A stretch of DNA of 20,547 nucleotides from sequence record DRR723986_5306; one strand, written 5' to 3'. Made by a program: the position numbers and the translations under genes. Below are positions 3,247 to 19,599 of this stretch, one piece after another. Each line of letters starts with the position of its first letter. Position 1 is the stretch's first letter. The notes below the pieces were generated by a model that was given only the letters and a program-made list of their open reading frames with translations, had not been told where the DNA came from and ran no database searches.

Positions 3247-6200
3247 CTACTGGACGGCACTGCTGCGTCGCTGGCGCTGGCTTTGCCACCAGAGGCGGAT
3301 ATCGCTGTCGATGGCCAGCATCAGCGGCACGGTATACAGGGTGGTGATCGCGCCGACAATCCCGCCCCAGAACATCACCATGATCATCGGCGTCTGTGTG
3401 GGGTGCGCACCGGCAATACCGTAGGCTGCAGGGCCGAGCCCGGCGCTGGTGGTAAGGGCGGTAATTAAAATGGGGCGCAGCCGCACGGCGGCGGCTTCGG
3501 CAATGGCGCTGCGCTCAACAATCGCACCTGGCTGCCCACTTTGGTGGTGTAGCTTATTCACTTTATCCACCAGAACCAGTGAGCTGTTCACCAGCACGCC
3601 GGCCAAGCCAAGGAAGCCGACAATGGCCGAAACGCCCAGCACGAAACCATGCAGGGTCAGCACGATCAGCACGGCGACAAAGGCCAGCGGGATGACCGCC
3701 ATAATAATCAAAGGCTGACTGAGGGAATTGAACAGCAACACCATCAGGAAAAAGATGCTGACCAGTACAATCATCAGACCGGTGCCCATCGACTCAGCGG
3801 TTTCGGCCTGCGCGACCAGTTCGCCGCCCAACTCAACTCGGACTCCCGGGTATTTCGCTGCAAATTGTTTTTCATCTAACCAGGCTTGTAGGCGGTGATT
3901 GATGTCCACCACCGACAGTTGGTCGCGGTTCACCTCCGCGCGGATGGTTTCAGCGCGGCGACCGCCATAGTGGGCGATAACCGCTTGGCCCTGGCGTACC
4001 TGGAATTGGGCAATATTGCGCAGTGGCACTTGCTCGCCACTTGGGCTCAATACAGTGAGTGAGCGCAGCGCATTGATGTCGTTGCGGTACTTGTCCTGTA
4101 GCTCCAGGCGATAGCGAATGCGCTCCTCGACGGTTTGCAACTCTTCGACCAGCAGACCGTCGTAGGCAATGCGCAGTGCGCGGGTGACATCCGCGACTGC
4201 GATACCGGCATTGGCGGTTGCGGCATAATCCAGTTTGAGTTCAATCAGGTTTTTGCCGGGGGTGTAGCTGGTCCATACCTCGGTAACACCGCGCTGTTCA
4301 CTCAGCCAGGCCATCAGCGCGTCGGCAATTTCGCCGCGCACTTCATCGGAGTGGGCTATCACCCGCGCTTCAACCGGCGTACCCACCGGCGGTTGCTCGT
4401 TTTCAATGTCGACGACAAAGCGAATCGCCTGCGTAAACTCCGGCCGCAGTTGTTTGAGGCGGTCGCGAATCTCGGCGGCGCTCAGCTCCCGGTGTCGCCC
4501 GGACACTAGGGTGAGTTGCACTTTACCCAGCGACGGAGATTTAACTTGGATCATATCGTCGCTATTTGGGTCGCTCCATTCACCCACAACAGAGAAGTGG
4601 CCGGTGATAATGCCATCGGGAATGGTCTCCAGCGCGCGTTGCTCAATGCGGTTGATCACGGCGGCGGTGGTATCGATAGTCGTGCCTGCGGGCATCTCGA
4701 TGCCAATGGTGATGTCGGTGGCATCGGTGTCGGGGTAGCTTTCAAACTGCAGGTAGTGCGAGAGCATGACGATGGACAGGAAAAAGAGTGCCAGCCCGCC
4801 CGACATGGCGATCATGGGTCGCCTCAGCATGGGCGTCAGGGTGGCGGCATAGAAGTGTTGCACATGGCGAAACCAGCTTGCCTTGTCGCGCCCGGCCTCG
4901 GCGCGTTTCAGCGATTCGGCGATGTGGGAGGGCAGTAAAATCAAACACTCGAAGAGCGAGGCGAGAATAATCAGCACGACGGTTGCCGGGATCACCCACA
5001 TAAACTTGGCGTCTTCCCCGCCGATCAGGAGCAGGGGCATCATGGCAAACACGGTGGTTAAGGCACCGGTAATAACCGGGCTGGAAACACTGTTTACCCC
5101 GTTCACAGCAGCGTCTCGAATCGACATGCCTGATTCAAAATGGCTGTAGATACTCTCGCTGGTGACAATGGCGTCGTCCACGAGCAGGCCGAGCATAAGA
5201 ATGATGGCGACGAAGGCGACGGTGTTGTAGGTCACGCCAAAGATCGGCATCAGCGCGATGCCGAGCAGCACGGCGACGGGTATGCCGACGACAACCCAGA
5301 AGGTAGAGCGCCAGGGGAAGAAGAATAACAGCACTAAGGTGATCAGGATCGCGCCCAGCATGGCGTTGTCCAGCAGAGTCGAGATCACCACCTTGGTAAT
5401 ATCGGCGCCGTCGTCGACGACCGATAACTGCACGGTGCTGGGCAGGTTTTTCCTAAATGTATTGAGCAGGCTTTTAATATCTTCCGACAGCGTCAGGTCG
5501 TTGCTGTCTGCCTGCGCGCGAACGGTGAGCACAATGCCCTGCAAGCCACCCTTGTAATACGAGACGGTGGCTTCGGAAAAGCCCTCGGTCACTTGTGCCA
5601 GGTCTTTTATTCGCAAGTGGTTGCCGTAGCCGTCGCTGCGCACGATCACCGAGGCGACTTCTTTGGGTTCGCTAAACTCGCCCACTGCAACGATGTCTTG
5701 TTCCCCGACAAAGGAGGCCAGCGAGCCGCCCGTTTCAGTGACATTGCGGCTTTTGATGGCGCGTTCTATTTCTGCGTAGGACACGCCAAGGCGGTCCAGT
5801 TTCAGGGGGTCGAGTTGAATATGGATTTCGCGGTCGCGATACCCCAGGCGGTCGACACCGCGCACGCCGCGAAGCGAGCGCAATTGGTCTTGCAGCGAGC
5901 GCGCCAGTTTGCGCAGCGTGGCTTCCGGCGCTTGGCCGTACAGCATCACGATGGCCACAGGGAAGTCTGCCGACTTGGCTTCCACCAGCAGGGGTTTTTC
6001 CAGAAGGTCTGTTGGCAGGCGGGATTGGGCGCGGTCTATGGCGCGCTGCAGGTCTCTGGCCATTTCGGCCAGCTGCGCCTTATCCGCCTCGGGATCGGCG
6101 TTGACCTGAATCAGCGACATGCCTTCGGCGCTATTCGAGCGCAGTTCGCGAATACCGTCGACAGACTCCAGCTCTTCCTCCAGCGGCACGGTAACGCTGA

Positions 6201-6384
6201 GCTCCATTTTCTCGGCGCTGGCGCCGGGCCGCAGCGTGGTGATGGAAAAGCGGCCGTTGGACAGGTCGGGGGCGCTCTTAATGGCGCCGGTTTGCAGGCT
6301 GTAAAAACCCAGCAAAATGCCCATGATCATCACCAGATTGACGATCAGGGGGCGGTCGATAAACCAAGCGTAAAAGGACTTCAT
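3247..6384 (-). CDS. RND efflux transporter permease (AcrB/AcrD/AcrF family)
   Basis: 1045 aa; N-terminal TM then large periplasmic loops; TM4 GLLVDDAIV; RLRPILITALTT near TM11; ATGA overlap with the adaptor gene. Confidence 0.93.
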   Translation of the reverse strand: MKSFYAWFIDRPLIVNLVMIMGILLGFYSLQTGAIKSAPDLSNGRFSITTLRPGASAEKMELSVTVPLEEELESVDGIRELRSNSAEGMSLIQVNADPEADKAQLAEMARDLQRAIDRAQSRLPTDLLEKPLLVEAKSADFPVAIVMLYGQAPEATLRKLARSLQDQLRSLRGVRGVDRLGYRDREIHIQLDPLKLDRLGVSYAEIERAIKSRNVTETGGSLASFVGEQDIVAVGEFSEPKEVASVIVRSDGYGNHLRIKDLAQVTEGFSEATVSYYKGGLQGIVLTVRAQADSNDLTLSEDIKSLLNTFRKNLPSTVQLSVVDDGADITKVVISTLLDNAMLGAILITLVLLFFFPWRSTFWVVVGIPVAVLLGIALMPIFGVTYNTVAFVAIILMLGLLVDDAIVTSESIYSHFESGMSIRDAAVNGVNSVSSPVITGALTTVFAMMPLLLIGGEDAKFMWVIPATVVLIILASLFECLILLPSHIAESLKRAEAGRDKASWFRHVQHFYAATLTPMLRRPMIAMSGGLALFFLSIVMLSHYLQFESYPDTDATDITIGIEMPAGTTIDTTAAVINRIEQRALETIPDGIITGHFSVVGEWSDPNSDDMIQVKSPSLGKVQLTLVSGRHRELSAAEIRDRLKQLRPEFTQAIRFVVDIENEQPPVGTPVEARVIAHSDEVRGEIADALMAWLSEQRGVTEVWTSYTPGKNLIELKLDYAATANAGIAVADVTRALRIAYDGLLVEELQTVEERIRYRLELQDKYRNDINALRSLTVLSPSGEQVPLRNIAQFQVRQGQAVIAHYGGRRAETIRAEVNRDQLSVVDINHRLQAWLDEKQFAAKYPGVRVELGGELVAQAETAESMGTGLMIVLVSIFFLMVLLFNSLSQPLIIMAVIPLAFVAVLIVLTLHGFVLGVSAIVGFLGLAGVLVNSSLVLVDKVNKLHHQSGQPGAIVERSAIAEAAAVRLRPILITALTTSAGLGPAAYGIAGAHPTQTPMIMVMFWGGIVGAITTLYTVPLMLAIDSDIRLWWQSQRQRRSSAVQ

Positions 6385-7454
6385 GGCTGAGTCTCGACAG
6401 TAACGGCTAGCCCGTCGGTAATCAGTTCCAGGGGAGAAAGGATCAGCATTTCATCGGGCTCGAGGCCAGACAGCACTGGAATCTCGTCGCCACTGGGTAG
6501 GCCAAAGCGGGGCTCGCGGCGCTCGGCGATTCCTTGGTTGACCACAAAAACTACCGCCTTACGCTGTCTGTCGACCACGGCTGTGCGAGGAATAAAGAGC
6601 ACTTTACGGTTGCTTTCAACGTCTATGCGCACACTGGCTGACATGCCCTCTCTAAGCAGCACATCGGCGTCGGACAGGCGGCACTTTACTTCAAAGTTTC
6701 CCGTGCGGGGGTGGGCTGACTGGGCAATCGCCTCTACTCTGGCGCGGTACACCTTATTGCTGGCATCGCTGCGCACCTCCACGGGGGTGCCCAACTTTAG
6801 CTGATTCACTTCGGCCTGGTTGACCCATGTGATGACTTGCAGGGCTTCCTGAGCCTGAATCTCGATCAGTGCCTGCCCCGGTTGTACGCGCTCGCCTTGC
6901 TCGATGGGCTCGCCGTCAACCACACCCGCTATCGGGCTGCGTATATCTCGGTCGGCGAGTTCTCGCTGTGCCAGCTCTAACTCCGCTTGCGCAGACTGAA
7001 ACCGTGCTTTCAGCGCGTCGTAGTGGGAGCGCGCATTGTCCAACTGGTCATCAGAGACCGCGCCGGTTTCTCGCAATTGGCTGAATTTTTGCCATTGCCG
7101 CTGCGCCTGATCCATGTCGGCCTCACTGCTGGCACGAATGGCACGGGCGCGCTCGACACGCAAATTTTGCTTCTCGTTATCCAGGCGCATGAGCAGCTGG
7201 CCTTGCTGAACCGCTTGGCCTTCTTTGACGAGAACCTTCGTCACCACGCCGGCAGCCTCTGCGGCAATATCGACCGTTTCCGCCGACTGCAGTACTCCGG
7301 AGGTTTCCAGTGGGTAAGACCAGGGGACGGCGGGGAAGCGTTTTACGTTGACGGATAGCTGCTCAACGGCAGCCTCGGGCACGGGCGGTGGCGGCTCGGA
7401 ACAGGCGGATAGAAAATTGACGATTGCCAGCAGCAGCCACGGTTTTTTATTCAT
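6381..7454 (-). CDS. RND periplasmic adaptor (membrane fusion protein), lipoprotein
   Basis: Lipobox FLSAC; lipoyl-like GVVTKVLVKEGQAVQQGQLL; helical hairpin; IRSPIAGVV; LREGMSASV. Confidence 0.92.
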   Translation of the reverse strand: MNKKPWLLLAIVNFLSACSEPPPPVPEAAVEQLSVNVKRFPAVPWSYPLETSGVLQSAETVDIAAEAAGVVTKVLVKEGQAVQQGQLLMRLDNEKQNLRVERARAIRASSEADMDQAQRQWQKFSQLRETGAVSDDQLDNARSHYDALKARFQSAQAELELAQRELADRDIRSPIAGVVDGEPIEQGERVQPGQALIEIQAQEALQVITWVNQAEVNQLKLGTPVEVRSDASNKVYRARVEAIAQSAHPRTGNFEVKCRLSDADVLLREGMSASVRIDVESNRKVLFIPRTAVVDRQRKAVVFVVNQGIAERREPRFGLPSGDEIPVLSGLEPDEMLILSPLELITDGLAVTVETQP

Positions 7455-10301: not shown

Positions 10302-10817
10302 TTAAAAATTCATAATAATATTGGTCAGTTTCCAGCTCAGGTTGCGCCGGCTTAATACGAAAATGCCTTGCTCTGCTGTGCCTTCATGCAGCGTGATATG
10401 AAAGGTGTCCCAGGCGGCGTATGCCAGTTTGGCATCTTTAAACGTTTCTCTGAATTCTGCTTTTTGCGCCTCTTGTTGCTCGCGGCTTTTGGCTTGCTGG
10501 CCCTCGTTGGTGTCGAGCATGCGGCCAATGGCTTCCGGGGTGATGAACGCATCCACCATAGAATTGACGACCACCGAGCCAAATGCGGCACCCATGGCGG
10601 CAAAGGGATTGTCATTGCTCGTGCTGGCGAGCTGCTGCGAAAGGGAGGCGTTTAACTGGCTTTTTACGTTTTCCCGCAGGATCGGGAATTCGATGTTTTC
10701 GGCCAGCGCCTCGGCATCCTTGTTTTCTGCAGACGTGAACAGTTGGTATGCGGTGAGGTAGGGCGATGCGGCGACATACGCAGCGAATACTATCGCGATG
10801 ACGACAACTTTCTTCAT
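10302..10817 (-). CDS. DUF2939 domain exported protein
   Basis: Start ATG 10817 with GGAG SD (MKKVVVIAIV...); ASPY motif, IEFPILRENVKSQL, MVDAFITPE, C-terminal WKLTNI. Confidence 0.78.
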   Translation of the reverse strand: MKKVVVIAIVFAAYVAASPYLTAYQLFTSAENKDAEALAENIEFPILRENVKSQLNASLSQQLASTSNDNPFAAMGAAFGSVVVNSMVDAFITPEAIGRMLDTNEGQQAKSREQQEAQKAEFRETFKDAKLAYAAWDTFHITLHEGTAEQGIFVLSRRNLSWKLTNIIMNF

Positions 10818-10998
10818 GGGGGCTCCATTAAAACACTCGGCGCTCGCATCAGTGCCTGGCCACTTCCTGCCTGGCTGATTTGCGCACGGGGCGCGCATTG
10901 TAAACAAAGATACGTTTCGGCACGACTTTGGCCAGTTCCCGGCAATGCCGTGAAAGTCGCGAAGATGGCGATGGCTGAACAGCCGTTGGGGAGGCGCC

Positions 10999-11676
10999 CT
11001 AGTCGTTTACCGGGCTGAGCAAGCGATAGCCCACGCCGCGCCGGGTCTCAATGATGGACGTCGCGCCCGCTGCGCTGAGCTTTCGGCGCAGTCGGCTGAT
11101 ATACACATCAACAACATTGGTTTCGGGCTCCGCTGTGCTGGGCCACACACGGCTCATGATTCGTTCACGGGACCAAAAACGGTTGGGGTGGCGGGCTAAC
11201 AATTTAAGAAGGTCGAATTCCAGGGCAGTGAGGGGCACGTCCACCCCGCGCAGCTGCGCGGTATGTTCCTCGGTGTTAATGGACAGGTCTCCGCATTGCA
11301 GCTTGGGGCTTTCAACCTGGGGGGCGGCTCGTCGCACCAGTGCTTCCACGCGCGCAAGCAGCTCCTCAAAGTCGAAGGGTTTTCCCAGGTAGTCATCGGC
11401 GCCGGCGCGCAGGCCGTCGATGCGCTCATCCACGTCGGCCAGCGCAGTGAGCATAATAATCGGCACGCGGTTGCCTTTGGCGCGCAGCTGACGGCAAAGT
11501 TCTACGCCATCACCACCGGGCAGCATGCGGTCGAGGATAATAAGGTCCACGTCTGTTGCGGCGGCGAGCCCACTTGCCACATTTTCCGCAATCGAGCAGG
11601 AATAGCCCTCCGAGGACATGCCTCGCGAGATCATTGCCGCCAGTCGTTTGTCGTCTTCAACAATTAACAGCTTCAT
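10999..11676 (-). CDS. OmpR/PhoB-family response regulator
   Basis: REC (LIVEDD, LIILDRMLPGGDG, GADDYLGKPF) plus winged helix (NVVDVYISRLRRKL, IETRRGVGY); ATGA overlap with the kinase gene. Confidence 0.95.
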   Translation of the reverse strand: MKLLIVEDDKRLAAMISRGMSSEGYSCSIAENVASGLAAATDVDLIILDRMLPGGDGVELCRQLRAKGNRVPIIMLTALADVDERIDGLRAGADDYLGKPFDFEELLARVEALVRRAAPQVESPKLQCGDLSINTEEHTAQLRGVDVPLTALEFDLLKLLARHPNRFWSRERIMSRVWPSTAEPETNVVDVYISRLRRKLSAAGATSIIETRRGVGYRLLSPVND

Positions 11677-13244
11677 GGTCGTATTGGTAAGGTGATGGTC
11701 ATCGTCGTGCCGCTATCGGGGTGACTGTCTGCGCGGATATCGCCGCCGTGGGCCAGTGCGATCGCTTTGGCAACTGCAAGGCCCAAACCGAGCCCTGCAC
11801 TTTCACTGTTGTCGCGACTATTGGCTGAGGTGCCGCGGAAAAACCGGTCGAAGATATAGGGCAATTCCTGAGGGTCGATGCCCGGCCCCTGATCTTCAAC
11901 GGTGATTACAACGCCTTGATCTTCGCGTTTTGTTTGCAGGTGAATGCATCCCTGCGAGGGGCTAAAGCGTCGGGCATTGTCGATGAGAATTACCAACAGC
12001 TGACGAATTCTCGCCGGGTCGAGCAGTAAATCGGGAATGGCAGGGTCAAGGTTTGTGTGTATCGCGACGTGATTATCGGCCGTTAGCACACTCGACTCTT
12101 TGACCACGCTTTCCAGTAGCGTATTCAGCGCCACGTTTTCGCGCATTAAGCGAATTCGCTCGGCGTCTGTTCGGGCGATAAATAACATGTCGTCAACCAG
12201 TCGGCTGAGGCCGATAGACTGCTCGAGCACAATGGCCAGGGCATCCTGATAGTCTGCTTTGGTTCGGGAGTCGCCACGCAGTGCAACCTGTGCCTCACCG
12301 CGAATGACGGTGAGTGGGGTTCGCAACTCATGACTAACGTCGGCGAAAAATTGCCGCCGCACATTGTCCGAGCGCTCCAGCGCTTGGTTGGCCTCCATCA
12401 ATTCTCGCGTTCTGGAATCCACGGCCTCCTGCAACTCGCGCTCGGTGCGTGCCTGCTGGGCGGTAAATCGCGCGAGGCGCTCAGCCATCGTGTTGAAATT
12501 GGTGCTGATCTGGTTGAACTCCGCATCGGGGGTGGATGGAATGCGGTAGTCAAATTTGCCGTCAATCCAAAGGTTGGCCGCGTGGTTTAGGGTATCAAGC
12601 GGCCGCGCAATCCCTCGCACCAATACCCATGCCATTGCCAGACCCAGCACGGTAGTAATCAGTACCAGCCCAACGGCAACGCCCAGCGCTTGAGAGTGAA
12701 CGCTTTGAATCCGGTTGTTCATCAGCGCAACGACCGAGCGCTGACGTGCCAGGGCTGCATTCACTTGTTCGCGAAATCCAACGTCAATGCGCTCCTCCAG
12801 GATCGCGTCAACGCGCTGTGAGCGTTCGGAGCTGGGCGGTAACTGCAGTGCCGACGTAAAGTCTCGAATGATCAGGTCGATAAGCTGTTCCAGTTCTACG
12901 GTGTCCTCTACCGCGCCGGGTGCAAATTCCTCGCCTATTGCGTCGCGCTGTTCTATCTCCAGTGCTTTAATTTTGCCCAGCGATTCCGCGATCGCTTGAC
13001 GCTTGTTGCGCACCACACTCTGGTTGGCCGTGCTGCCCAGTAGCACTTCGTCGGTAAGTTGTTTGAAAAGCCGGTATGTGTGAACAGAAAGCTGCAAGTG
13101 TTCGTTTAATAAGTCTTGTGCGAGGTTGGCTTGATGGATGTGGCGGTCGGTGGCTTTAACCGACCAAATAGACAAGACCGCGGCCAGTAAAACCGCAAGC
13201 GTTGAAAACGCGACGACGACGCCAATTTTTGATCGATAAGTCAT
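11673..13244 (-). CDS. Membrane sensor histidine kinase (TM-periplasmic helical sensor-TM-HAMP-HisKA-HATPase)
   Basis: H-box FFADVSHELRTPL, N-box LIDNARRF, G1 DQGPGI, F-box IFDRFFRG, G2 GLGLGLAV. Start uncertain: 13244 preferred, 13286 possible. Confidence 0.93.
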   Translation of the reverse strand: MTYRSKIGVVVAFSTLAVLLAAVLSIWSVKATDRHIHQANLAQDLLNEHLQLSVHTYRLFKQLTDEVLLGSTANQSVVRNKRQAIAESLGKIKALEIEQRDAIGEEFAPGAVEDTVELEQLIDLIIRDFTSALQLPPSSERSQRVDAILEERIDVGFREQVNAALARQRSVVALMNNRIQSVHSQALGVAVGLVLITTVLGLAMAWVLVRGIARPLDTLNHAANLWIDGKFDYRIPSTPDAEFNQISTNFNTMAERLARFTAQQARTERELQEAVDSRTRELMEANQALERSDNVRRQFFADVSHELRTPLTVIRGEAQVALRGDSRTKADYQDALAIVLEQSIGLSRLVDDMLFIARTDAERIRLMRENVALNTLLESVVKESSVLTADNHVAIHTNLDPAIPDLLLDPARIRQLLVILIDNARRFSPSQGCIHLQTKREDQGVVITVEDQGPGIDPQELPYIFDRFFRGTSANSRDNSESAGLGLGLAVAKAIALAHGGDIRADSHPDSGTTMTITLPIRP

Positions 13245-13296
13245 GAACACAACGATAGCACGTTCCCGGTGGCTTGGTGTTTTCATACGCGGCGCT

Positions 13297-13352
13297 GTTC
13301 ATGTTCGGTTCATCTTCTGAACAGGCGCAGTTCATCGAACTCTCCTTAATAT
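13297..13352 (+). promoter_or_regulatory. Phased direct-repeat array (putative OmpR-family binding site) plus -10 element of the carbonic anhydrase operon
   Basis: GTTCAT at 13297, 13308 and 13330, with degenerate GAACAG at 13319 (11-bp period); TAATAT at 13347-13352. Confidence 0.6.
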
Positions 13353-13411
13353 TCATCTCGAGGCGCGGCAATGACCGCCGAGCGTGTTACTAAACCATCT
13401 GGAGATGAACG

Positions 13412-14005
13412 ATGAAAACCATGAAATCTAACAAACTGGGCAAAGGGCGCTTTACTGCCAAAGCGGCTACCGCGGTGATCGTTGGATCAGTCGCGCTGGG
13501 ATTAACTGCCTGTAGCCAAACAGAGGCCGGTTATAAAAACTCGGCGGCAATTTCTAAAGCGGATGTTCTGGCCGCGCAAAAGGCCTGGGGTGACGGGATC
13601 GTAGCGATTGGCGATGTTTATGAAGAAGGTGGTGATTACGCTGCCCGCGCCAGTGAGCACATCAGCAGCCTGTACTCCTACGGCAAATCTGAAGTGCTGT
13701 TCAAGCCGACGCTCGCCAGCGATCAGCAGTTCCGCGACAGCTTCGGTGGTGCACTGTCTTACTTTGTAGGCGGTGAGATAGAAGAAGACAAGGGCTTCGC
13801 TATCAAGCCGTGGTCGAAGGTGCGCTTTGGCGAGCAGCAAATCATTACCGACTCCGACTCGGCGGTAGCGATGGGGAACTACTTCTTCACGCCCGAGGGC
13901 GCGAGCGACGAAGTGAAGGTGGAATTTACCTTTGGCTATGTTCGCGATGAAGACGGCAACCTGCGCATCAATGTGCATCACTCCTCGCTGCCTCACAGTG
14001 GCTAA
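13412..14005 (+). CDS. COG4337 / iota-class carbonic anhydrase (NTF2/SnoaL-like fold), predicted lipoprotein
   Basis: V.AAQKAWG..IV.I, VLFKPTLA, GALSYFVGG, EDKGFAIKPW..VRF, AMGNYFF, KVEFTFGY, C-terminal LRINVHHSSLP; lipobox GLTAC (Cys34); GGAGA SD at 13401. Confidence 0.8.
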   Translation: MKTMKSNKLGKGRFTAKAATAVIVGSVALGLTACSQTEAGYKNSAAISKADVLAAQKAWGDGIVAIGDVYEEGGDYAARASEHISSLYSYGKSEVLFKPTLASDQQFRDSFGGALSYFVGGEIEEDKGFAIKPWSKVRFGEQQIITDSDSAVAMGNYFFTPEGASDEVKVEFTFGYVRDEDGNLRINVHHSSLPHSG

Positions 14006-14026
14006 TGAGAGGCTAGCAACCCAGGC

Positions 14027-14057
14027 CACCCCGCATACTTGCTATGCGGGGTGTTTT
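14027..14057 (+). terminator. Intrinsic terminator or attenuating hairpin between the carbonic anhydrase and barrel genes
   Basis: CACCCCGCATA-CTTGC-TATGCGGGGTG perfect 11-bp stem followed by TTTT. Confidence 0.7.
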
Positions 14058-14079
14058 AAGTAGCGAAACCGGTGACGTG

Positions 14080-14808
14080 ATGAAGAGTAAACTCCCCCAG
14101 CTTAGTTTTTTGCTCGTCAGTGCACTCGCGAGTACGTCGATATATGCCAACACCTCGTCGGTGTTTAGTCCCGATGTAAAGCGCGGTGACACCAGCGCCG
14201 AATACCGCGCCAGTCATGTGCCCACTGACGGTTCGCGTGGCAGTGAATTCAGCCAGCGCGTACACCTGCAGCATGCTTTTAACGACACTTGGCGGCTGCG
14301 CTTTATCAGCGCTCAAAGTAAAGATGCCGGTGAAGATTTCGCCTTCGACTACAGCAGGCTGGAGCTACAGCAGCAGTTGCTGGAAAGCGAGCATGCCGGT
14401 TGGGATGCCGCGCTGCGTTATGAGCTGCAATTGGGTGCCAATGGCAATGCGCCGGATCGCTTCCGCGTTGCCGCAACGGGAAAATGGGACTTTACCAGTG
14501 GCTGGCAGTTCAGAGCGAACCTGCTGCTGGGTAAGGAGTTTGGTAGCAATGCCGACGATGAAACGTTGCTGGAAGCGCGCAGCCAGATTACCGCGCCCTG
14601 GCAGGGCATGCGCGTGGGCGTAGAAGCCTTTAACGATTTTAACTACGACAGCGGCGTGATTGCCTACAACGAGCAAGACCACCAAATAGGCCCCATTCTT
14701 AAAGTCAAAGCGGCAGGCTTCTCCATTACCGCCAGCTATTTGATGAGCGCGTCAGACGCCGCGGATCAGCACAATTTTCGCCTGCATGTGTCCAGAGCAA
14801 TTCACTAG
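14080..14808 (+). CDS. Uncharacterised exported protein, predicted outer-membrane beta-barrel
   Basis: Sec signal MKSKLPQLSFLLVSALASTSIYA; many amphipathic strands (QRVHLQHAF, WRLRFIS, ALRYELQL, WQFRANLLL, FSITASYL, FRLHVS). ATG 14044 lies inside the hairpin, so 14080 is preferred. Confidence 0.62.
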   Translation: MKSKLPQLSFLLVSALASTSIYANTSSVFSPDVKRGDTSAEYRASHVPTDGSRGSEFSQRVHLQHAFNDTWRLRFISAQSKDAGEDFAFDYSRLELQQQLLESEHAGWDAALRYELQLGANGNAPDRFRVAATGKWDFTSGWQFRANLLLGKEFGSNADDETLLEARSQITAPWQGMRVGVEAFNDFNYDSGVIAYNEQDHQIGPILKVKAAGFSITASYLMSASDAADQHNFRLHVSRAIH

Positions 14809-14867: not shown

Positions 14868-14944
14868 TGGTGGGCCCGGACAGACTTGAACTGTCGACCT
14901 GCCGATTATGAGTCGGATGCTCTAACCAACTGAGCTACGGGCCC
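14868..14944 (-). tRNA. ileX: tRNA-Ile2 (CAU anticodon, lysidine-modified, reads AUA)
   Basis: 77 nt GGGCCCGTAGCTCAGTTGGTTAGAGCATCCGACT-CAT-AATCGGCAGGTCGACAGTTCAAGTCTGTCCGGGCCCACCA; acceptor stem GGGCCCG/CGGGCCC with C4-G69 and C5-G68; encoded CCA; downstream of rpoD. The tRNA itself is certain; Ile2 rather than Met is inferred. Confidence 0.9.
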
Positions 14945-14990
14945 TGGGAAGGTGGTTGCCAAGCCGCCACTGATGCCGGCTTTTGACCAA

Positions 14991-15026
14991 GCGCGCATTA
15001 TAAAGAGGCCTTGTCTGCAATGCCAG
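14991..15026 (-). promoter_or_regulatory. Sigma70 promoter of the tRNA with GC-rich (stringent) discriminator
   Basis: Minus strand CTGGCA-N18-TATAAT-GCGCGC. Confidence 0.65.
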
Positions 15027-15055
15027 CGACAGTCGTGCGCTGGCGTTATTCTCTG

Positions 15056-15083
15056 TGTAATTTTACAGCGGTGCTGCCATAAT
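15056..15083 (+). promoter_or_regulatory. Putative extended -10 promoter and palindrome upstream of the cyclase operon
   Basis: TGcCATAAT at 15075-15083; TGTAA-TT-TTACA inverted repeat at 15056-15067. Confidence 0.35.
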
Positions 15084-15113
15084 TGGCCTAACCACGCTGG
15101 CGCGGAGTCTATT

Positions 15114-16982
15114 TTGAAAGATCAACAACGCATAGAGAAGGCGTACCTGGACGATGTTCGCCAAAGCTTGTATGCCTCTTTGGCGGCGATGCGCAGCCGC
15201 TTGTCCTCGGTGGTTGCTGAGTTGCAGGGCCAGCCCGATGTGCTGGCAGATCTGGAGCGAGTGGTCGGTGCTCTGCAAGCGCTGGAGGCTTCCCTCAGCG
15301 CTGCTGGTGAACACGATGACGACACGGCACTGGCGAGGCTTCGTCATGACCAGCGCAATCATATCGGCGTGGTTGAAGGCTACCTTGAAATTGTATTGGA
15401 TGACTTGGCCGACGATGCACCGCAGGCAGTGGCATTGCGAGAAATTGCTGACTTATCCCGACAATTCCATGTAGCGCTGGAAAAATTTCGCCGCCCCAAC
15501 CAGCAAAGCGATGATACGGATCCGGTCTCGGCAATATTTAAGAGCTTTCGCCGAGGTTTGTCGTCGGGGCCGCGCAGCGCCGAGCCGGCGACGATTTTGG
15601 TGGTCGATGATAACGACAGTGGACGAGAGCTAATCGCACAGCAATTGCAGCGCCAGGATTATCTGGTGGTGGAGGCGGCGAGTGGCGAGCGCTGCCTGGA
15701 GGTTATGCGCAGCGCCAGGCCTGACCTCGTGTTACTGGACCTAGTGATGCCGGGCTTGAATGGCTACGAGGTACTGCAGGCAATTCGCGATGATGAGGAG
15801 CTGCGACGCATTCCGGTGGTGGTGATCAGTGGTGTGCAGGATGAAGTTGGCGCGATTCATTGCATCGATGCTGGCGCCAGTGATTACCTGATTAAGCCCG
15901 TTAATGCCACGCTGCTGAACGCCAGGGTGTCGGCGCTGCTGGAGCGCAAGGCCTGGCAGGATCGCGAACGGGAGTATCTTGCCGAGCTGGAGAAGAGCCA
16001 GCGGTTTATCCGCAAAGTGTTTGGTCGCTACTTATCCGATGAGATCGTTCAGCGCCTGCTGGATGATAACGATGGGCTGACGCTGGGCGGCGAGCGTCGC
16101 CGTGTGACGGTGTTGATGGCTGACATTCGTGATTTTTCCACCATTAGTTTGCAGTTGGAGCCGGAGCGCTGTGTAAGCCTGCTGAACAACTATCTCGCGG
16201 TGATGACTGAGGTGATCCAAGCCTATCGCGGCACGGTGGATGAGTTTGTTGGCGATGGCATTTTGGCCGTTTTCGGCGCGCCGCTGCGGGAAGATGATGA
16301 CGCCGACCGAGCGCTGGCCTGCGCAGTGGCCATGCAGCAGGGAATGGCTAAGGTGAATGCGCGCAATGTGGCCGAGGGCCTGCCCGCGATTGAAATTGGC
16401 ATCGGCTTGAATACCGGCGATGTTATTGCGGGCAATATCGGTTCCGAGTTGCGCAGTAAGTACGGTGTGGTGGGGCACAATGTGAACCTGACCTCGCGTA
16501 TTGAGTCGTGCACCGCTGCTGGCCAGATACTCGCATCGCCCAGCACCCTGGCATTTAGCCGTGTTGAAGTACTGTGCGGCAAGCGCATTAGCGTTTCGGT
16601 GAAGGGGCTCGACGAGCCGTTGGAGCTCAGTGAGGTGCTGGGTGTTGGCCTGCCTTATGACCTGCTGCTGGAGGGCAGAGACGAGCCCTGGCACCAGTAT
16701 GCGCAACCGATAGCAATGCATATGAGCGTGCTGGTGGATAAGCGTTTGGGGGCTGAGCGCCTCCCGGTAAGCTTGCACGCTTGCCGCGATAATGCGCTGT
16801 TAGTGGCCTGCGACACAGCGCTTCAATTGCCGGTCGATGTCTGCTTGTTTGGTCCCGACGATACGCTCTCTCTGTACGGCAAGATTGTCGGTCAAGAGGC
16901 GGGAAACTACGAATTAAGAATGACCGTTAACCCCAGTTTGCACGCGCAGTTGTTGGCGCTGGATAGCCGCGACGCTAAGTAA
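15114..16982 (+). CDS. DHp(HisKA-like)-REC-class III nucleotide cyclase, predicted guanylate cyclase (Cya2-type), with a C-terminal beta-rich extension
   Basis: TTG start at 15114 after GGAG; H-box-like LRHDQRNHIGVVEGYLEIVLDD; REC ILVVDD..LVLLDLVMP..DYLIKP; cyclase LMADIRDFS, VDEFVGDG, GNIGSELRSKYGVVGHNVNLTSRIES. Confidence 0.88.
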   Translation: MKDQQRIEKAYLDDVRQSLYASLAAMRSRLSSVVAELQGQPDVLADLERVVGALQALEASLSAAGEHDDDTALARLRHDQRNHIGVVEGYLEIVLDDLADDAPQAVALREIADLSRQFHVALEKFRRPNQQSDDTDPVSAIFKSFRRGLSSGPRSAEPATILVVDDNDSGRELIAQQLQRQDYLVVEAASGERCLEVMRSARPDLVLLDLVMPGLNGYEVLQAIRDDEELRRIPVVVISGVQDEVGAIHCIDAGASDYLIKPVNATLLNARVSALLERKAWQDREREYLAELEKSQRFIRKVFGRYLSDEIVQRLLDDNDGLTLGGERRRVTVLMADIRDFSTISLQLEPERCVSLLNNYLAVMTEVIQAYRGTVDEFVGDGILAVFGAPLREDDDADRALACAVAMQQGMAKVNARNVAEGLPAIEIGIGLNTGDVIAGNIGSELRSKYGVVGHNVNLTSRIESCTAAGQILASPSTLAFSRVEVLCGKRISVSVKGLDEPLELSEVLGVGLPYDLLLEGRDEPWHQYAQPIAMHMSVLVDKRLGAERLPVSLHACRDNALLVACDTALQLPVDVCLFGPDDTLSLYGKIVGQEAGNYELRMTVNPSLHAQLLALDSRDAK

Positions 16983-17002: not shown

Positions 17003-17374
17003 ATGGCCACCCTGTTGTTGGTAGAAGACAATGAAATGAACCGGGATATGCTGAGCCGGCGTTTGCAGCGTCGCGGATACGACGTGTTGCTTGCGGTAGA
17101 TGGCCAGCAAGGTATTGATATGAGCCGGGAGCATGGGCCGGACCTGTTGCTGTTGGATATGAGCTTGCCGGTAAAAGATGGCTGGCAGGTGGCCAGAGAA
17201 ATGAAGGCCGATCCGGCGCTGCAGGGCATTCCATTAATAGCGCTCACAGCTCATGCCATGGCCGACGACCGGATGCGGGCAATGGAGGCGGGTTGTGACG
17301 ACTACGATACTAAGCCGGTTGATCTGCCTCGCTTACTCTCGAAGATTGATGCCTTACTCGGGTCCGGCGAATGA
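17003..17374 (+). CDS. Single-domain response regulator (DivK-like receiver)
   Basis: [42 protein letters not shown]. Confidence 0.93.
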
Positions 17375-19599
17375 GTTTTACACGCCGCCTGACCTTTTCA
17401 TTCGTCGCAATTTTGCTGCTGTCTCTTGGCAGCGTACTCGTGCAGGTGTGGGGCAACGATAGCCGCCGCCGCAATGTCTGGCTGCTGCAAAGCGTGATCA
17501 ATACCCAGGCAGAAATGAATGCCTTCAGCCAGCAGCTCTACGGCCTGCAGCGAAAAATGCGCGTGGTCGAAGCGCTTAATCAGTCTGCAGCCAACCAGCA
17601 ATTGAGCGAAGATGAGCGCAACGAGATCTTGCAGGCCCTTGAGCAATTGCGCGCTTTGCAGCGCCAGCTTAGTCGCGACCTGAAGGAATTTATGCGGCCT
17701 GAGGATTTTGCGCCGCTGCGCGTCGATACGCTGCTGGATGGGTGGCAGCGCTATGTGATGGCGACAGAGCGCGGTGACGGCGATGCCGAGGCCCTGCAGG
17801 CCCCCAGTGAGTTGGCGGAGTATTACCTGCGCATCAGCCGTCAGCTGAGCGAAAACGAACTCCTGCTCCTTATTCGCTCTGATGAGATCAATGCCAAATT
17901 GAAGGACATTGTTAGCCTCACTAACAAAGTGGCGCTGGCGGTGTTTTTACTGGCACTGATCGTGACCTTCGTGCTCGGGTATTACATGACGCGCTATACC
18001 CGTCGCTCTATCCGCCAATTGCAGAAAGGGACCGCTGAATGGGGTAGCGGCAACTTTAACTACCGCATTGCGGATATGGGGCATGACGAATTCGGCCAGT
18101 TGGCAACCTCCTTTAACGAGATGGCGTCCAACCTGCGCAATGCCATGGCGCGGGTGCGCGAGGCCAGCCGTCGAGCCGATGCTGCAAACCAGGCGAAAAG
18201 CGGTTTTCTGGCGAATATGAGTCACGAGCTTCGCACGCCGATGAACGCGATTATTGGCTATTCGGAGATGTTGCTTGAGGAGATCGAGGACGATCCCCAG
18301 CTCCCGGCCGAGCAGCTTCAAGCGGATTTAGAGAAGGTGCAGCTGGCCGGTAAGCACTTACTGACGTTGATCAACGATGTACTGGATATATCCAAGATCG
18401 AGTCCGGCCGCATGGCGGTGTTTTGGGAGACGGTGGAACTCACCTCGGTGCTGCGCGATGTTGAGGTAACCGCTCAACCATTGGTCGCAAAAAATAATAA
18501 CCGCCTTCACTGCAGTTATCACGTCGAGGAAACGCCGCTGCGCACTGACGTTACGCGCCTGCGCCAAGTGTTGCTGAATTTGCTGAGCAACGCTGCCAAG
18601 TTCACCCGCGGTGGCGATATTCGCTTGAAAGTCTGGGCGGAGCAAGAGGCGCCCGACGAGCTTTGCTTTGAAGTGTCTGACAGCGGCATAGGTATGAGCC
18701 AGGAGCAGTTGGAAAAAGTCTTCGACGCGTTTGTACAGGCTGACTTGTCGACAACGAAACAATATGGCGGCTCAGGCCTGGGCTTAACCATTTCGCGCAA
18801 ATTTGCCGAGCTGCTGGGCGGCAGCCTGAGCGCGGAGAGTCGCGAGGGGGAGGGCAGCCGCTTTTTGCTTAAACTGCCTGTTAACGGCGAGCAAAGCAGC
18901 GCGATGCAGGCGGCAGTGGTCGGTGAGGAATTGGCCGATGTACTGGTTATTGATGACGACAGCAATACTCAGGAGATTGTTCGCCGACACCTGCAGCGAG
19001 AGGGCTACGGTGTGCGCCTCGCTAGCTCCGGTGCAGATGGCTTGGCGCAGGCTCGCCAGCAGCGCCCGGACCTGATTGTACTCGATGTGATGATGCCGGT
19101 TATGGATGGCTGGCAAGTGCTGCATGCGCTGCGCAGTGACGCAGAGCTGAGCTCGGTGCCGGTGCTCATGCAGTCGATGTTGAACGAGCGCGACCTCGGC
19201 CTGTTGCTGGGGGCCAATGAATATCTGGTGAAACCTGTGGAGCGCGACGAACTGACGGCGGCGGTACGCGAGCTGATTCCTGCCGGCGCGGCCGGGAACC
19301 TAATGCTGTTGGAGCAGGGTGGGGTGCTGGCGAAGGTGATCGCCAAGTCGCCGGGTGCGCAATATTGGCGAGTGTATCAAGCGGAGTCGGTTGAACAGGC
19401 GCGCAGTATGCTGGCGGAGCGGCCGTGGCAGTTATTTGTGGTGGGGCCACATGCCGACGAGCAAGGCGTTGGTGAATTTTTGTCAGAGCTGCGAGGCGGT
19501 CAGTGGCGGTCCGTGCCGATCATGCTTGCGCGGACCGAAGAAGACACCAGTGTACTTGAACAGCAGTTGGCGCTTTATTTACGACGCGCGGGGCAGTAG
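17371..19599 (+). CDS. Hybrid sensor histidine kinase (2TM-HAMP-HisKA-HATPase-REC plus degenerate REC)
   Basis: [83 protein letters not shown] overlap with the receiver gene. Confidence 0.94.

Follow-up and report, generated by a model that had tools for sequence, protein, structure and literature searches.

A two-component system with a distinct candidate sensor family appears to control periplasmic carbonic anhydrases in marine Gammaproteobacteria

How might a bacterium that does not photosynthesize sense the state of inorganic carbon outside its cytoplasm, and which of its genes would respond? Sensing of CO2 and bicarbonate by non-photosynthetic bacteria is a largely open question, and it is raised by a locus at positions 10999..14808 of a 20,547-nucleotide (nt) stretch of DNA, one strand of sequence record DRR723986_5306, which as a whole we call the window. 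Here the genes for a response regulator and a sensor histidine kinase diverge from those for a carbonic anhydrase lipoprotein and an outer-membrane beta-barrel (Table 1). The four open reading frames (ORFs) lie where the initial annotation of this DNA had placed them when it proposed a four-gene module for periplasmic CO2/HCO3- conversion. Based on our findings, we consider it highly probable that the two-component system controls a periplasmic carbonic anhydrase, and we favor the view that the locus is a self-contained envelope carbonic-anhydrase regulon with inorganic carbon (HCO3-/CO2), or the pH tied to it, as its signal. The earlier idea is largely supported, with the conserved unit being sensor, regulator and anhydrase rather than the four genes.

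By sequence and active site, the lipoprotein is an iota-class carbonic anhydrase. The FKPT, SYF and HHSS motifs are readable in its translation, and its assignment to the COG4337 type is borne out by matches to the NCBIfam model NF047901, 'metal-independent carbonic anhydrase' (E = 1.9e-37), to the iota-carbonic anhydrase of Bigelowiella natans (7c5x, E = 3.1e-112, residues 43-196 aligning to each of the three repeat domains) and to all2909 of Anabaena (7c5v, E = 9.1e-32, over the whole domain). Pfam PF27546 is precomputed on all of its close homologs. According to PMC8132391, iota-carbonic anhydrases of the COG4337 type function metal-free, and Thr106, Tyr124, His197 and Ser199 of all2909 are required for activity. 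Mapped through the 7c5v alignment (chain numbering offset +27), these residues correspond to T100, Y117, H189 and S191, which are invariant in 42 homologs. A lipobox (L31-T32-A33-C34), followed by Ser35, predicts a lipoprotein that faces the periplasm.

The divergent genes encode a system of the OmpR/PhoB type, in which the receiver (Response_reg, E = 2.7e-25) and winged helix (Trans_reg_C, E = 5.4e-26) of the regulator and the HAMP, HisKA and HATPase domains of the kinase all score above the Pfam cut-offs. At the level of individual systems, every listed NCBIfam equivalog match of the two proteins (PhoBR, CusRS/CopRS, BaeSR, OmpR-EnvZ, CpxAR and others) falls below its curated cut-off; the regulator scores best with PhoB (206.6 bits vs. 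a cut-off of 296.2), and the kinase reaches 189.8 bits against cztS_silS_copS (cut-off 292.55). The Pfam matches of the kinase span residues 222-536, and residues 1-221 are covered by no Pfam model. This part begins a layout of first transmembrane helix, periplasmic four-helix bundle of ~150 amino acids (aa), second transmembrane helix, HAMP, HisKA and HATPase. The true start may be ATG 13244 (M15), since relatives begin at this position in the alignment.

The predicted structure of residues 1-225 is a transmembrane-helix hairpin around a periplasmic four-helix bundle (helices 6-83, 89-117, 125-147 and 153-224; pLDDT 88.4). Foldseek returned no match to this model at an E value of 0.001 or better, all values being 0.017 or worse, and a wide structural search retrieved TorS, HK9, ligand-binding domains of methyl-accepting chemotaxis proteins and other chemoreceptors, QseE, NarQ and McpN at Z scores of 12-15 (TorS 14.6, NarQ 12.4, McpN 12.2), the ordinary range for helical bundles. 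The sequence is more distinctive. An alignment of 47 sensors contains 37 invariant columns, including H63, Y71, R72, K75, R93, K95, R114 and R181, and when 1.84 billion cluster representatives are searched with a profile of the domain, just 156 match, 69 with E values of 1e-10 or better. Full-length matches measure about 445-650 aa, mostly 510-550 aa, which is the length of this kinase. Judged from these alignments, the sensor is a narrow family without a Pfam model.

Is this sensor tied to carbonic anhydrases beyond the window? A scan of the genome collection anchored on the sensor domain alone, with one genome per species, gave 116 confirmed loci in marine Gammaproteobacteria, of which 80 were kept. 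A relative of the regulator follows the sensor kinase in 76 of these, and a carbonic anhydrase lies within one or two genes of the kinase or regulator in 50, the link being present in 19 of the 25 named genera. Kinase, regulator and periplasmic anhydrase therefore stand together as the initial annotation had envisaged, but its four genes do not form a conserved unit. Its choice of enzyme likewise holds in part, as the anhydrase is iota in 15 loci and more often a non-homologous, delta-like protein (35 loci). The latter were counted as phmmer matches to one representative (L006:10044-10958), which itself matches PF10563 at E = 5.8e-72.

The two enzyme classes bear on the possibility that the kinase senses limitation of a trace metal (Zn, Co or Cd) and switches on a metal-sparing anhydrase. 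This would suit an enzyme class that works without metal (PMC8132391), and the kinase core does score best with heavy-metal and phosphate-type kinases, albeit below the cut-offs. That similarity, however, is confined to the cytoplasmic core, while the sensor is a four-helix bundle. Moreover, each of the histidines H103, H105, H110, H166 and H288 is conserved in 34 or all 35 of the delta-like enzymes, which with five such invariant residues look like metalloenzymes. As the same sensor accompanies these histidine-rich enzymes, and does so more often than it accompanies iota enzymes, we regard control by metal scarcity as very improbable.

The linkage appears to have been rearranged repeatedly. 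On a quick maximum-likelihood tree of 79 kinases (the truncated ORF of locus L082 was left out), adjacency to iota or to delta-like enzymes changes at least 5 times, and the kinases of Spongiibacter and Zhongshania fall in different deep branches, which suggests that the module moves between lineages. We propose that the anhydrase classes may replace one another by non-orthologous displacement, with alpha as a possible third class, found beside a homolog of the barrel in locus L122. Among 40 genomes of the wider taxonomic family, four carry the iota enzyme and five the barrel, and kinase and regulator are present at all four iota loci and at four of the five barrel loci. Sensor identity is 86% in the closest of these loci (L003) and 41-43% in the diverged ones. 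Gene order varies between divergent as in the window, anhydrase-kinase-regulator, anhydrase-barrel-kinase-regulator, and barrel divergent from kinase-regulator; in the family loci with the barrel only, a secreted delta-like anhydrase adjoins the regulator, followed by OmpW, a P-II-like gene and an SbtA-family transporter. Loci of the Zhongshania type (L006:10044-13360, L029 and L111), with the barrel on one side and the delta-like anhydrase, OmpW, P-II-like gene and SbtA-family transporter on the other, hold the fullest inorganic-carbon gene set that we saw.

Across 401 genomes of the order, the iota enzyme occurs in 18, at 19 loci, and the sensor adjoins it at 5 of these 19, all five being among the 7 loci with the enzymes most similar to that of the window. 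In a class-wide sample the sensor was found in 5 of 400 scored genomes, too sparse for neighborhood statistics. At a sixth iota locus (L090:5486-8480), the genes for a regulator and for a kinase of the same layout, 27% identical and diverged in its sensor, are divergent from that for an iota enzyme of the other subfamily, with TTCATC-N5-TTAATC 88 nt upstream of the enzyme gene. Because of this combination of kinase, enzyme and operator, the system may extend beyond the sensor family as we defined it.

A candidate binding site for the regulator lies in front of the anhydrase genes. In the divergent promoter of the window, TTCATG (13298-13303), TTCATC (13309-13314) and TTCATC (13331-13336) are spaced by 11 and 22 nt, in agreement with the phased repeats described in the initial annotation, and a fourth hexamer, TTCATC, lies at 13352-13357. 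TAATAT at 13347-13352 is a candidate -10 element. The heptamer GTTCATC occurs 7 times in the window, where 1.97 are expected and none of 100 shuffles reaches 7. In a relative whose proteins are 74-84% identical, the block TTCATG-N5-TTCATC-N16-TTCATC is kept while the intergenic flanks have diverged, and in two operons of same-strand layout ATTAATCT occurs twice, 11 nt apart, upstream of the anhydrase. PhoB/OmpR-type activation works from direct repeats phased at 11 base pairs (bp), as in the logic of the pho box.

A repeat of the same kind emerges when no motif is assumed. Unbiased 6-mer enrichment upstream of the 50 anhydrase genes ranks TTAATC (27 loci vs. 4.3 expected) and TAATCT at the top, and the half-sites are spaced by 11 nt in 28 cases. 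The pattern TT[ACT]AT[CG]-N5-TT[ACT]AT[CG], searched on both strands of 2.87 Mb, occurs 76 times, and 47 of these sites fall within the zones immediately 5' of anhydrase, OmpW or barrel genes, which total 37.6 kb and would hold 1.0 site by uniform chance; after shuffling, the zones contain 0.2 sites on average and never more than 2, compared with 46 observed. Sites precede the anhydrase, or OmpW where it heads the operon, in 42 of the 50 anhydrase loci. In loci with OmpW ahead of the anhydrase, the site precedes OmpW, and Zhongshania-type loci have an additional site upstream of the barrel. This shared, conserved operator supports the link between regulator and anhydrase that had been proposed for the window, and the sequences suggest that the regulator binds the TTCAT repeats.

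The genes that would accompany the enzyme in the outer membrane are less constant. OmpW is present in 19 of the 80 loci, always in anhydrase loci (6 iota, 13 delta), and is the usual outer-membrane partner, with the barrel a weak member. For the barrel of the window the most plausible start codon is ATG 14080, which yields a 242-aa protein with a signal peptide. The protein has no Pfam or NCBIfam match (0 Pfam families at E values up to 1), and a word-indexed search of 5.8 billion sequences places it in a family of 35 proteins. PF13557 (Phenol_MetA_deg) is matched by 13 of 36 aligned family members, with a best E value of 2.7e-9. An AlphaFold2 model built on the family alignment has 12 strands (mean pLDDT 89.9, pTM 0.82), in keeping with the beta-barrel predicted earlier. 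Foldseek matches the model to FapF (E = 7e-8), OmpG, NanC, the COG4313 channel 4rl8 (E = 1e-5, TMq 0.60) and KdgM; FapF, OmpG and NanC score as well as or above 4rl8, and at the level of the model the resemblance is a generic one to small channels. Invariant in the family are R43, R60, H62, Q64, R74, R113 and R167. In the model they map to the polar face that alternates along the strands, from which we suggest a pore that is lined by these Arg, His and Gln residues and would prefer anions.

A metagenome scan anchored on a 5-row barrel alignment gave 15 loci: three have the two-component system, one an alpha-carbonic anhydrase, two modABC and one a receiver-cyclase gene, and four are too short to judge. 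The alpha enzyme (PF00194, E = 3.6e-42; L122:5147-6693) is encoded 12 nt upstream of the barrel homolog, with no two-component system nearby, and in L112:2918-6699 and L110:1991-5739 modA, modB and modC, all above the NCBIfam curated cut-offs, lie directly upstream of the homologs. As a third anhydrase class and an oxyanion importer adjoin barrel homologs, a role as an oxyanion channel fits, and these neighbors hint that the family passes small oxyanions. The barrel family is clearly not tied to this regulator. In locus L114, the receiver-cyclase gene lies 1 kb upstream of the barrel homolog.

Within the window, the anhydrase and barrel genes are separated by a hairpin (14027-14053) with a perfect 11-bp stem and a 5-nt loop, followed by TTTT, which overlaps the longer barrel ORF (from 14044) and resembles a weak terminator or an attenuator. 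For the 74-nt spacer, the folding energy of -24.4 kcal/mol (z = -1.14) is no better than that of shuffled sequences. A marine RNA library contains an 856-nt contig, with 13 mismatches, which spans 13369-14223, starting shortly after the candidate -10 element and continuing across the hairpin into the barrel. RNA contigs of one sample, in two runs, cover kinase and regulator and hardly touch anhydrase and barrel, while the pattern is reversed in another run; contig depth cannot rank the genes.

Several observations weigh against a dedicated regulon of this kind. The fold of the sensor is a generic four-helix bundle, uninformative on the ligand. The terminator-like hairpin raises the possibility that anhydrase and barrel are transcribed separately, the RNA contigs can prove neither a start nor a single transcript, and RNA libraries may contain DNA. 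The barrel occurs in just 2 of the 80 sensor loci and 3 of the 15 barrel-anchored metagenome loci. At 13 of the 19 order-wide iota loci there is no such system within ~8 kb, although four of the 13 lie at contig ends. Nearby anhydrases are missing from 30 of the 80 sensor loci, and scanning 37 neighbors revealed no other anhydrase class; 18 of the 30 belong to a single Alteromonas clade on the kinase tree. Finally, in the nearest genome the operator pattern has 5 matches vs. 3 for a control pattern, showing that the motif alone is weakly specific. One of the five is the promoter of this anhydrase and none of the other four lies in a convincing promoter. With only the anhydrase promoter looking like a target in that genome, the regulon seems to be local and narrow.

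Taken at face value, the loci without an anhydrase and the weak specificity of the motif would allow the adjacency to be incidental, with the two-component system regulating other genes and the repeats not being its binding site. Such a coincidence would have to account for adjacency in 50 of 80 loci and 19 of 25 named genera, for a linkage kept despite rearranged gene order, for 47 operator sites where 1.0 is expected, and for an operator that stands next to the regulator gene even in the Alteromonas clade without anhydrases. We find this hard to believe.

In that clade (L061:12300-12567 on the minus strand; L063, L086, L088, L038, L040, L028 and L074), a triple operator phased at 11 bp lies just past the regulator gene, followed in L061, L063 and L086 by TATAAT. 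The next ~170-190 nt are poorly conserved and share no ORF; a conserved hairpin with a T-run closes this stretch, which converges on the regulator gene. From its sequence features this non-coding unit looks like a small RNA under the same regulator; an Rfam search with it gave nothing credible (E = 0.64). In another anhydrase-less locus, from Salinimonas (L025:5119-9731), the kinase gene is immediately preceded by genes for a 1039-aa Proton_antipo_M protein, which may belong to an Mrp-type antiporter or a DAB-like CO2 pump, and for a 497-aa protein.

The identity of the enzyme and the nature of the channel raise a further doubt. The anhydrase scores 128.7 bits against NF047901, below the equivalog cut-off of 350 bits, and the only Pfam relatives of the barrel are annotated for phenol-pathway uptake, so that the substrate of the barrel could be something else. 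Another small substrate (COS, CS2 or cyanate-derived carbamate) would make the locus a detoxification or assimilation module with the barrels as entry channels, a notion favored by the annotation of both these distant relatives and OmpW for uptake of small hydrophobic compounds and by an assignment of enzymatic identity that rests on sequence. None of the 401 genomes of the order has a protein above this cut-off, and the model seems geared to the cyanobacterial branch. Iota, delta-like and alpha enzymes share CO2 hydration as their common activity while occupying the same genomic role, and the residues needed for this reaction are invariant, leaving another substrate with very little to recommend it.

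The genomic background is consistent with a need for inorganic carbon. The nearest named record is a contig of Spongiibacter marinus (L009) with an identical sensor domain, and the nearest genome encodes one beta-carbonic anhydrase and a pair of SbtA and P-II-like genes. No RuBisCO was found in that genome, as would be expected from the probable heterotroph of the initial annotation, and these genes fit a heterotroph that imports and traps inorganic carbon. The SbtA/P-II-like pair itself (L124, G001:C9:26500-32500) was considered as a member of the regulon and set aside, as it has a divergent LysR-type gene and no TTCAT operator.

Based on these results, we suggest that the periplasmic four-helix bundle of the kinase would read an extracytoplasmic signal, upon which the kinase would phosphorylate the OmpR/PhoB-type regulator. 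The regulator would then bind the 11-bp-phased TTCAT repeats in the divergent promoter and drive transcription of the iota-carbonic anhydrase lipoprotein, and also of the barrel, by read-through of the weak hairpin. The anhydrase would speed the interconversion of CO2 and HCO3- in the periplasm, with the arginine-lined barrel, or OmpW in most other taxa, serving as a dedicated route by which inorganic carbon crosses the outer membrane. Enzyme and channel together would provide more inorganic carbon to the cell, a heterotroph with a cytoplasmic beta-carbonic anhydrase and an SbtA-type bicarbonate transporter encoded elsewhere in its genome. In this scheme both the direction of regulation and what the barrel carries are inferred; as the most likely signal we favor the state of inorganic carbon in the periplasm, be it HCO3-/CO2 or the pH tied to it.

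The residues conserved in the sensor also invite an explanation based on pH homeostasis, in which the kinase would sense acid or alkaline stress and the anhydrase would buffer the periplasm, as in the ArsRS system of Helicobacter pylori. The invariant His63 and many invariant acidic residues of the sensor could titrate; the phosphorylated ArsR regulon includes hp1186, a periplasmic alpha-carbonic anhydrase (PMC2736386); and bacterial COG4337 proteins have been proposed to act in pH homeostasis (PMC8132391). Seawater, however, is well buffered, and the neighbors scanned include no urease or other acid-acclimation genes. The pairing of the module in some loci with SbtA, a P-II-like gene and outer-membrane channels also fits carbon supply better than buffering. 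We thus consider pH homeostasis rather unlikely, though worth keeping in mind, and return to inorganic carbon, or the pH tied to it, as the most likely signal.

A more specific form of the carbon reading can be offered tentatively, and we would not yet bet on it. The kinase could sense periplasmic bicarbonate or CO2 directly, through a bundle that has many invariant Arg and Lys residues and would bind a planar oxyanion much as NarX and NarQ bind nitrate. Nitrate and bicarbonate would be comparable here as planar oxyanions. The regulon would then comprise an exchangeable carbonic anhydrase (iota, delta-like or alpha) and outer-membrane carbon channels (barrel or OmpW), with a small RNA as output in one Alteromonas clade. 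If true, it would be the first two-component system dedicated to the sensing of inorganic carbon to be described in heterotrophic bacteria.

Table 1. Features of the locus, in coordinates of the 20,547-nt window
Feature	Position	Strand	Basis
OmpR/PhoB-family response regulator, 225 aa	10999..11676	-	Pfam Response_reg and Trans_reg_C
Sensor histidine kinase, 537 aa as ORF	11673..13286	-	HAMP, HisKA, HATPase_c
Candidate operator, TTCAT repeats in the divergent promoter	13298..13357	+	Repeat spacing, conservation
Iota-class (COG4337-type) carbonic anhydrase lipoprotein, 197 aa	13412..14005	+	NF047901 and 7c5x/7c5v matches
Intercistronic hairpin and TTTT, anhydrase/barrel spacer	14027..14057	+	Terminator-like scan
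Predicted 12-stranded outer-membrane beta-barrel, 242 aa with signal peptide	14080..14808 (ORF from 14044)	+	AlphaFold2 model

The kinase and regulator ORFs overlap by 4 nt, and a tRNA-Met gene (14868-14944, minus strand) forms the right edge, beside which similarity and synteny to the nearest genome stop at ~14848; tRNA is all that an Rfam scan of the 20,547-nt window detected. Past the tRNA gene lie a receiver-adenylate/guanylate-cyclase gene (14952-16982), a single receiver (17003-17374) and a hybrid kinase (17371-19599), all three of which are absent at this place from the nearest genome. The first of these was rejected as a module member, its cyclase domain matching in 0 of the 80 sensor loci and lying beyond the end of synteny, and so was a DUF2939 gene on the other flank (10302-10907), present in 1 of 80. 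An AcrB-family pump and HlyD-type adaptor (3247-7454, minus strand) are an ordinary RND efflux pair, unrelated to the module.

The locus offers several handles on CO2/bicarbonate sensing, namely a distinct sensor family, a defined candidate operator and a very small predicted regulon centered on a periplasmic carbonic anhydrase, and the signal is directly testable using the ~150-aa sensor domain and a reporter fusion. OmpW and the small arginine-lined barrel become candidate routes for inorganic carbon across the outer membrane. More broadly, our findings indicate that marine heterotrophs such as Alteromonas, Pseudoalteromonas, Glaciecola, Thalassolituus, Alcanivorax and Haliea regulate the carbon chemistry of their envelope, which has a bearing on dark carbon fixation and anaplerosis in the ocean.

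The OmpR-type system, the iota-carbonic anhydrase and the small barrels are each of a known kind. The literature that we searched, with subscription journals outside its coverage, yielded no two-component system linked to iota- or delta-carbonic anhydrases and no such module; undescribed in that literature are the sensor family, its operator, and the conserved coupling to interchangeable anhydrase classes and outer-membrane partners. The initial annotation had stated that it knew of no regulator or porin partner for this enzyme class, which agrees with our search as far as the iota class is concerned, but a precedent for a two-component system with a periplasmic alpha-carbonic anhydrase exists in ArsRS (PMC2736386).

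Compared with the known iota enzymes all2909 (7c5v) and Bn86287 (7c5x), the anhydrase of the window aligns over the whole domain and shares the active-site Thr, Tyr, His and Ser. Bacterial iota-carbonic anhydrases are mostly predicted to be single-domain proteins with an N-terminal export signal (PMC8132391), and the window enzyme is alike. It differs in being a predicted lipoprotein rather than a soluble periplasmic protein, in its place in a putatively regulated operon with an outer-membrane barrel, and in scoring below the NF047901 cut-off. ArsRS likewise combines an OmpR-type regulator and a sensor kinase with a periplasmic anhydrase as target; it governs a global acid regulon in which the anhydrase is one of many targets (PMC2736386), whereas here the adjacent anhydrase operon is apparently the main target. 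The present system also has an unannotated four-helix-bundle sensor, which appears to be different, and marine heterotrophic hosts.

TorS, NarX/NarQ, McpN, Tar and QseE share with the window kinase the succession of transmembrane helix, periplasmic antiparallel four-helix bundle, transmembrane helix and HAMP, but its sensor belongs to no sequence family recognized by Pfam or NCBIfam. The operator resembles a pho box in its tandem hexamers at 11-bp phase just upstream of a -10-like element; its half-site, TT(A/C)AT(C/G), differs, the regulator lies below the PhoB and OmpR cut-offs, and binding is putative. Finally, the modeled 12-stranded barrel matches the COG4313/PF13557 channel 4rl8, with FapF, OmpG and NanC ranking as high or higher, and OmpW takes the same operon position in 19 loci; the lumen of the modeled window barrel is arginine-rich, suggesting that it may pass anions rather than hydrophobic substrates.

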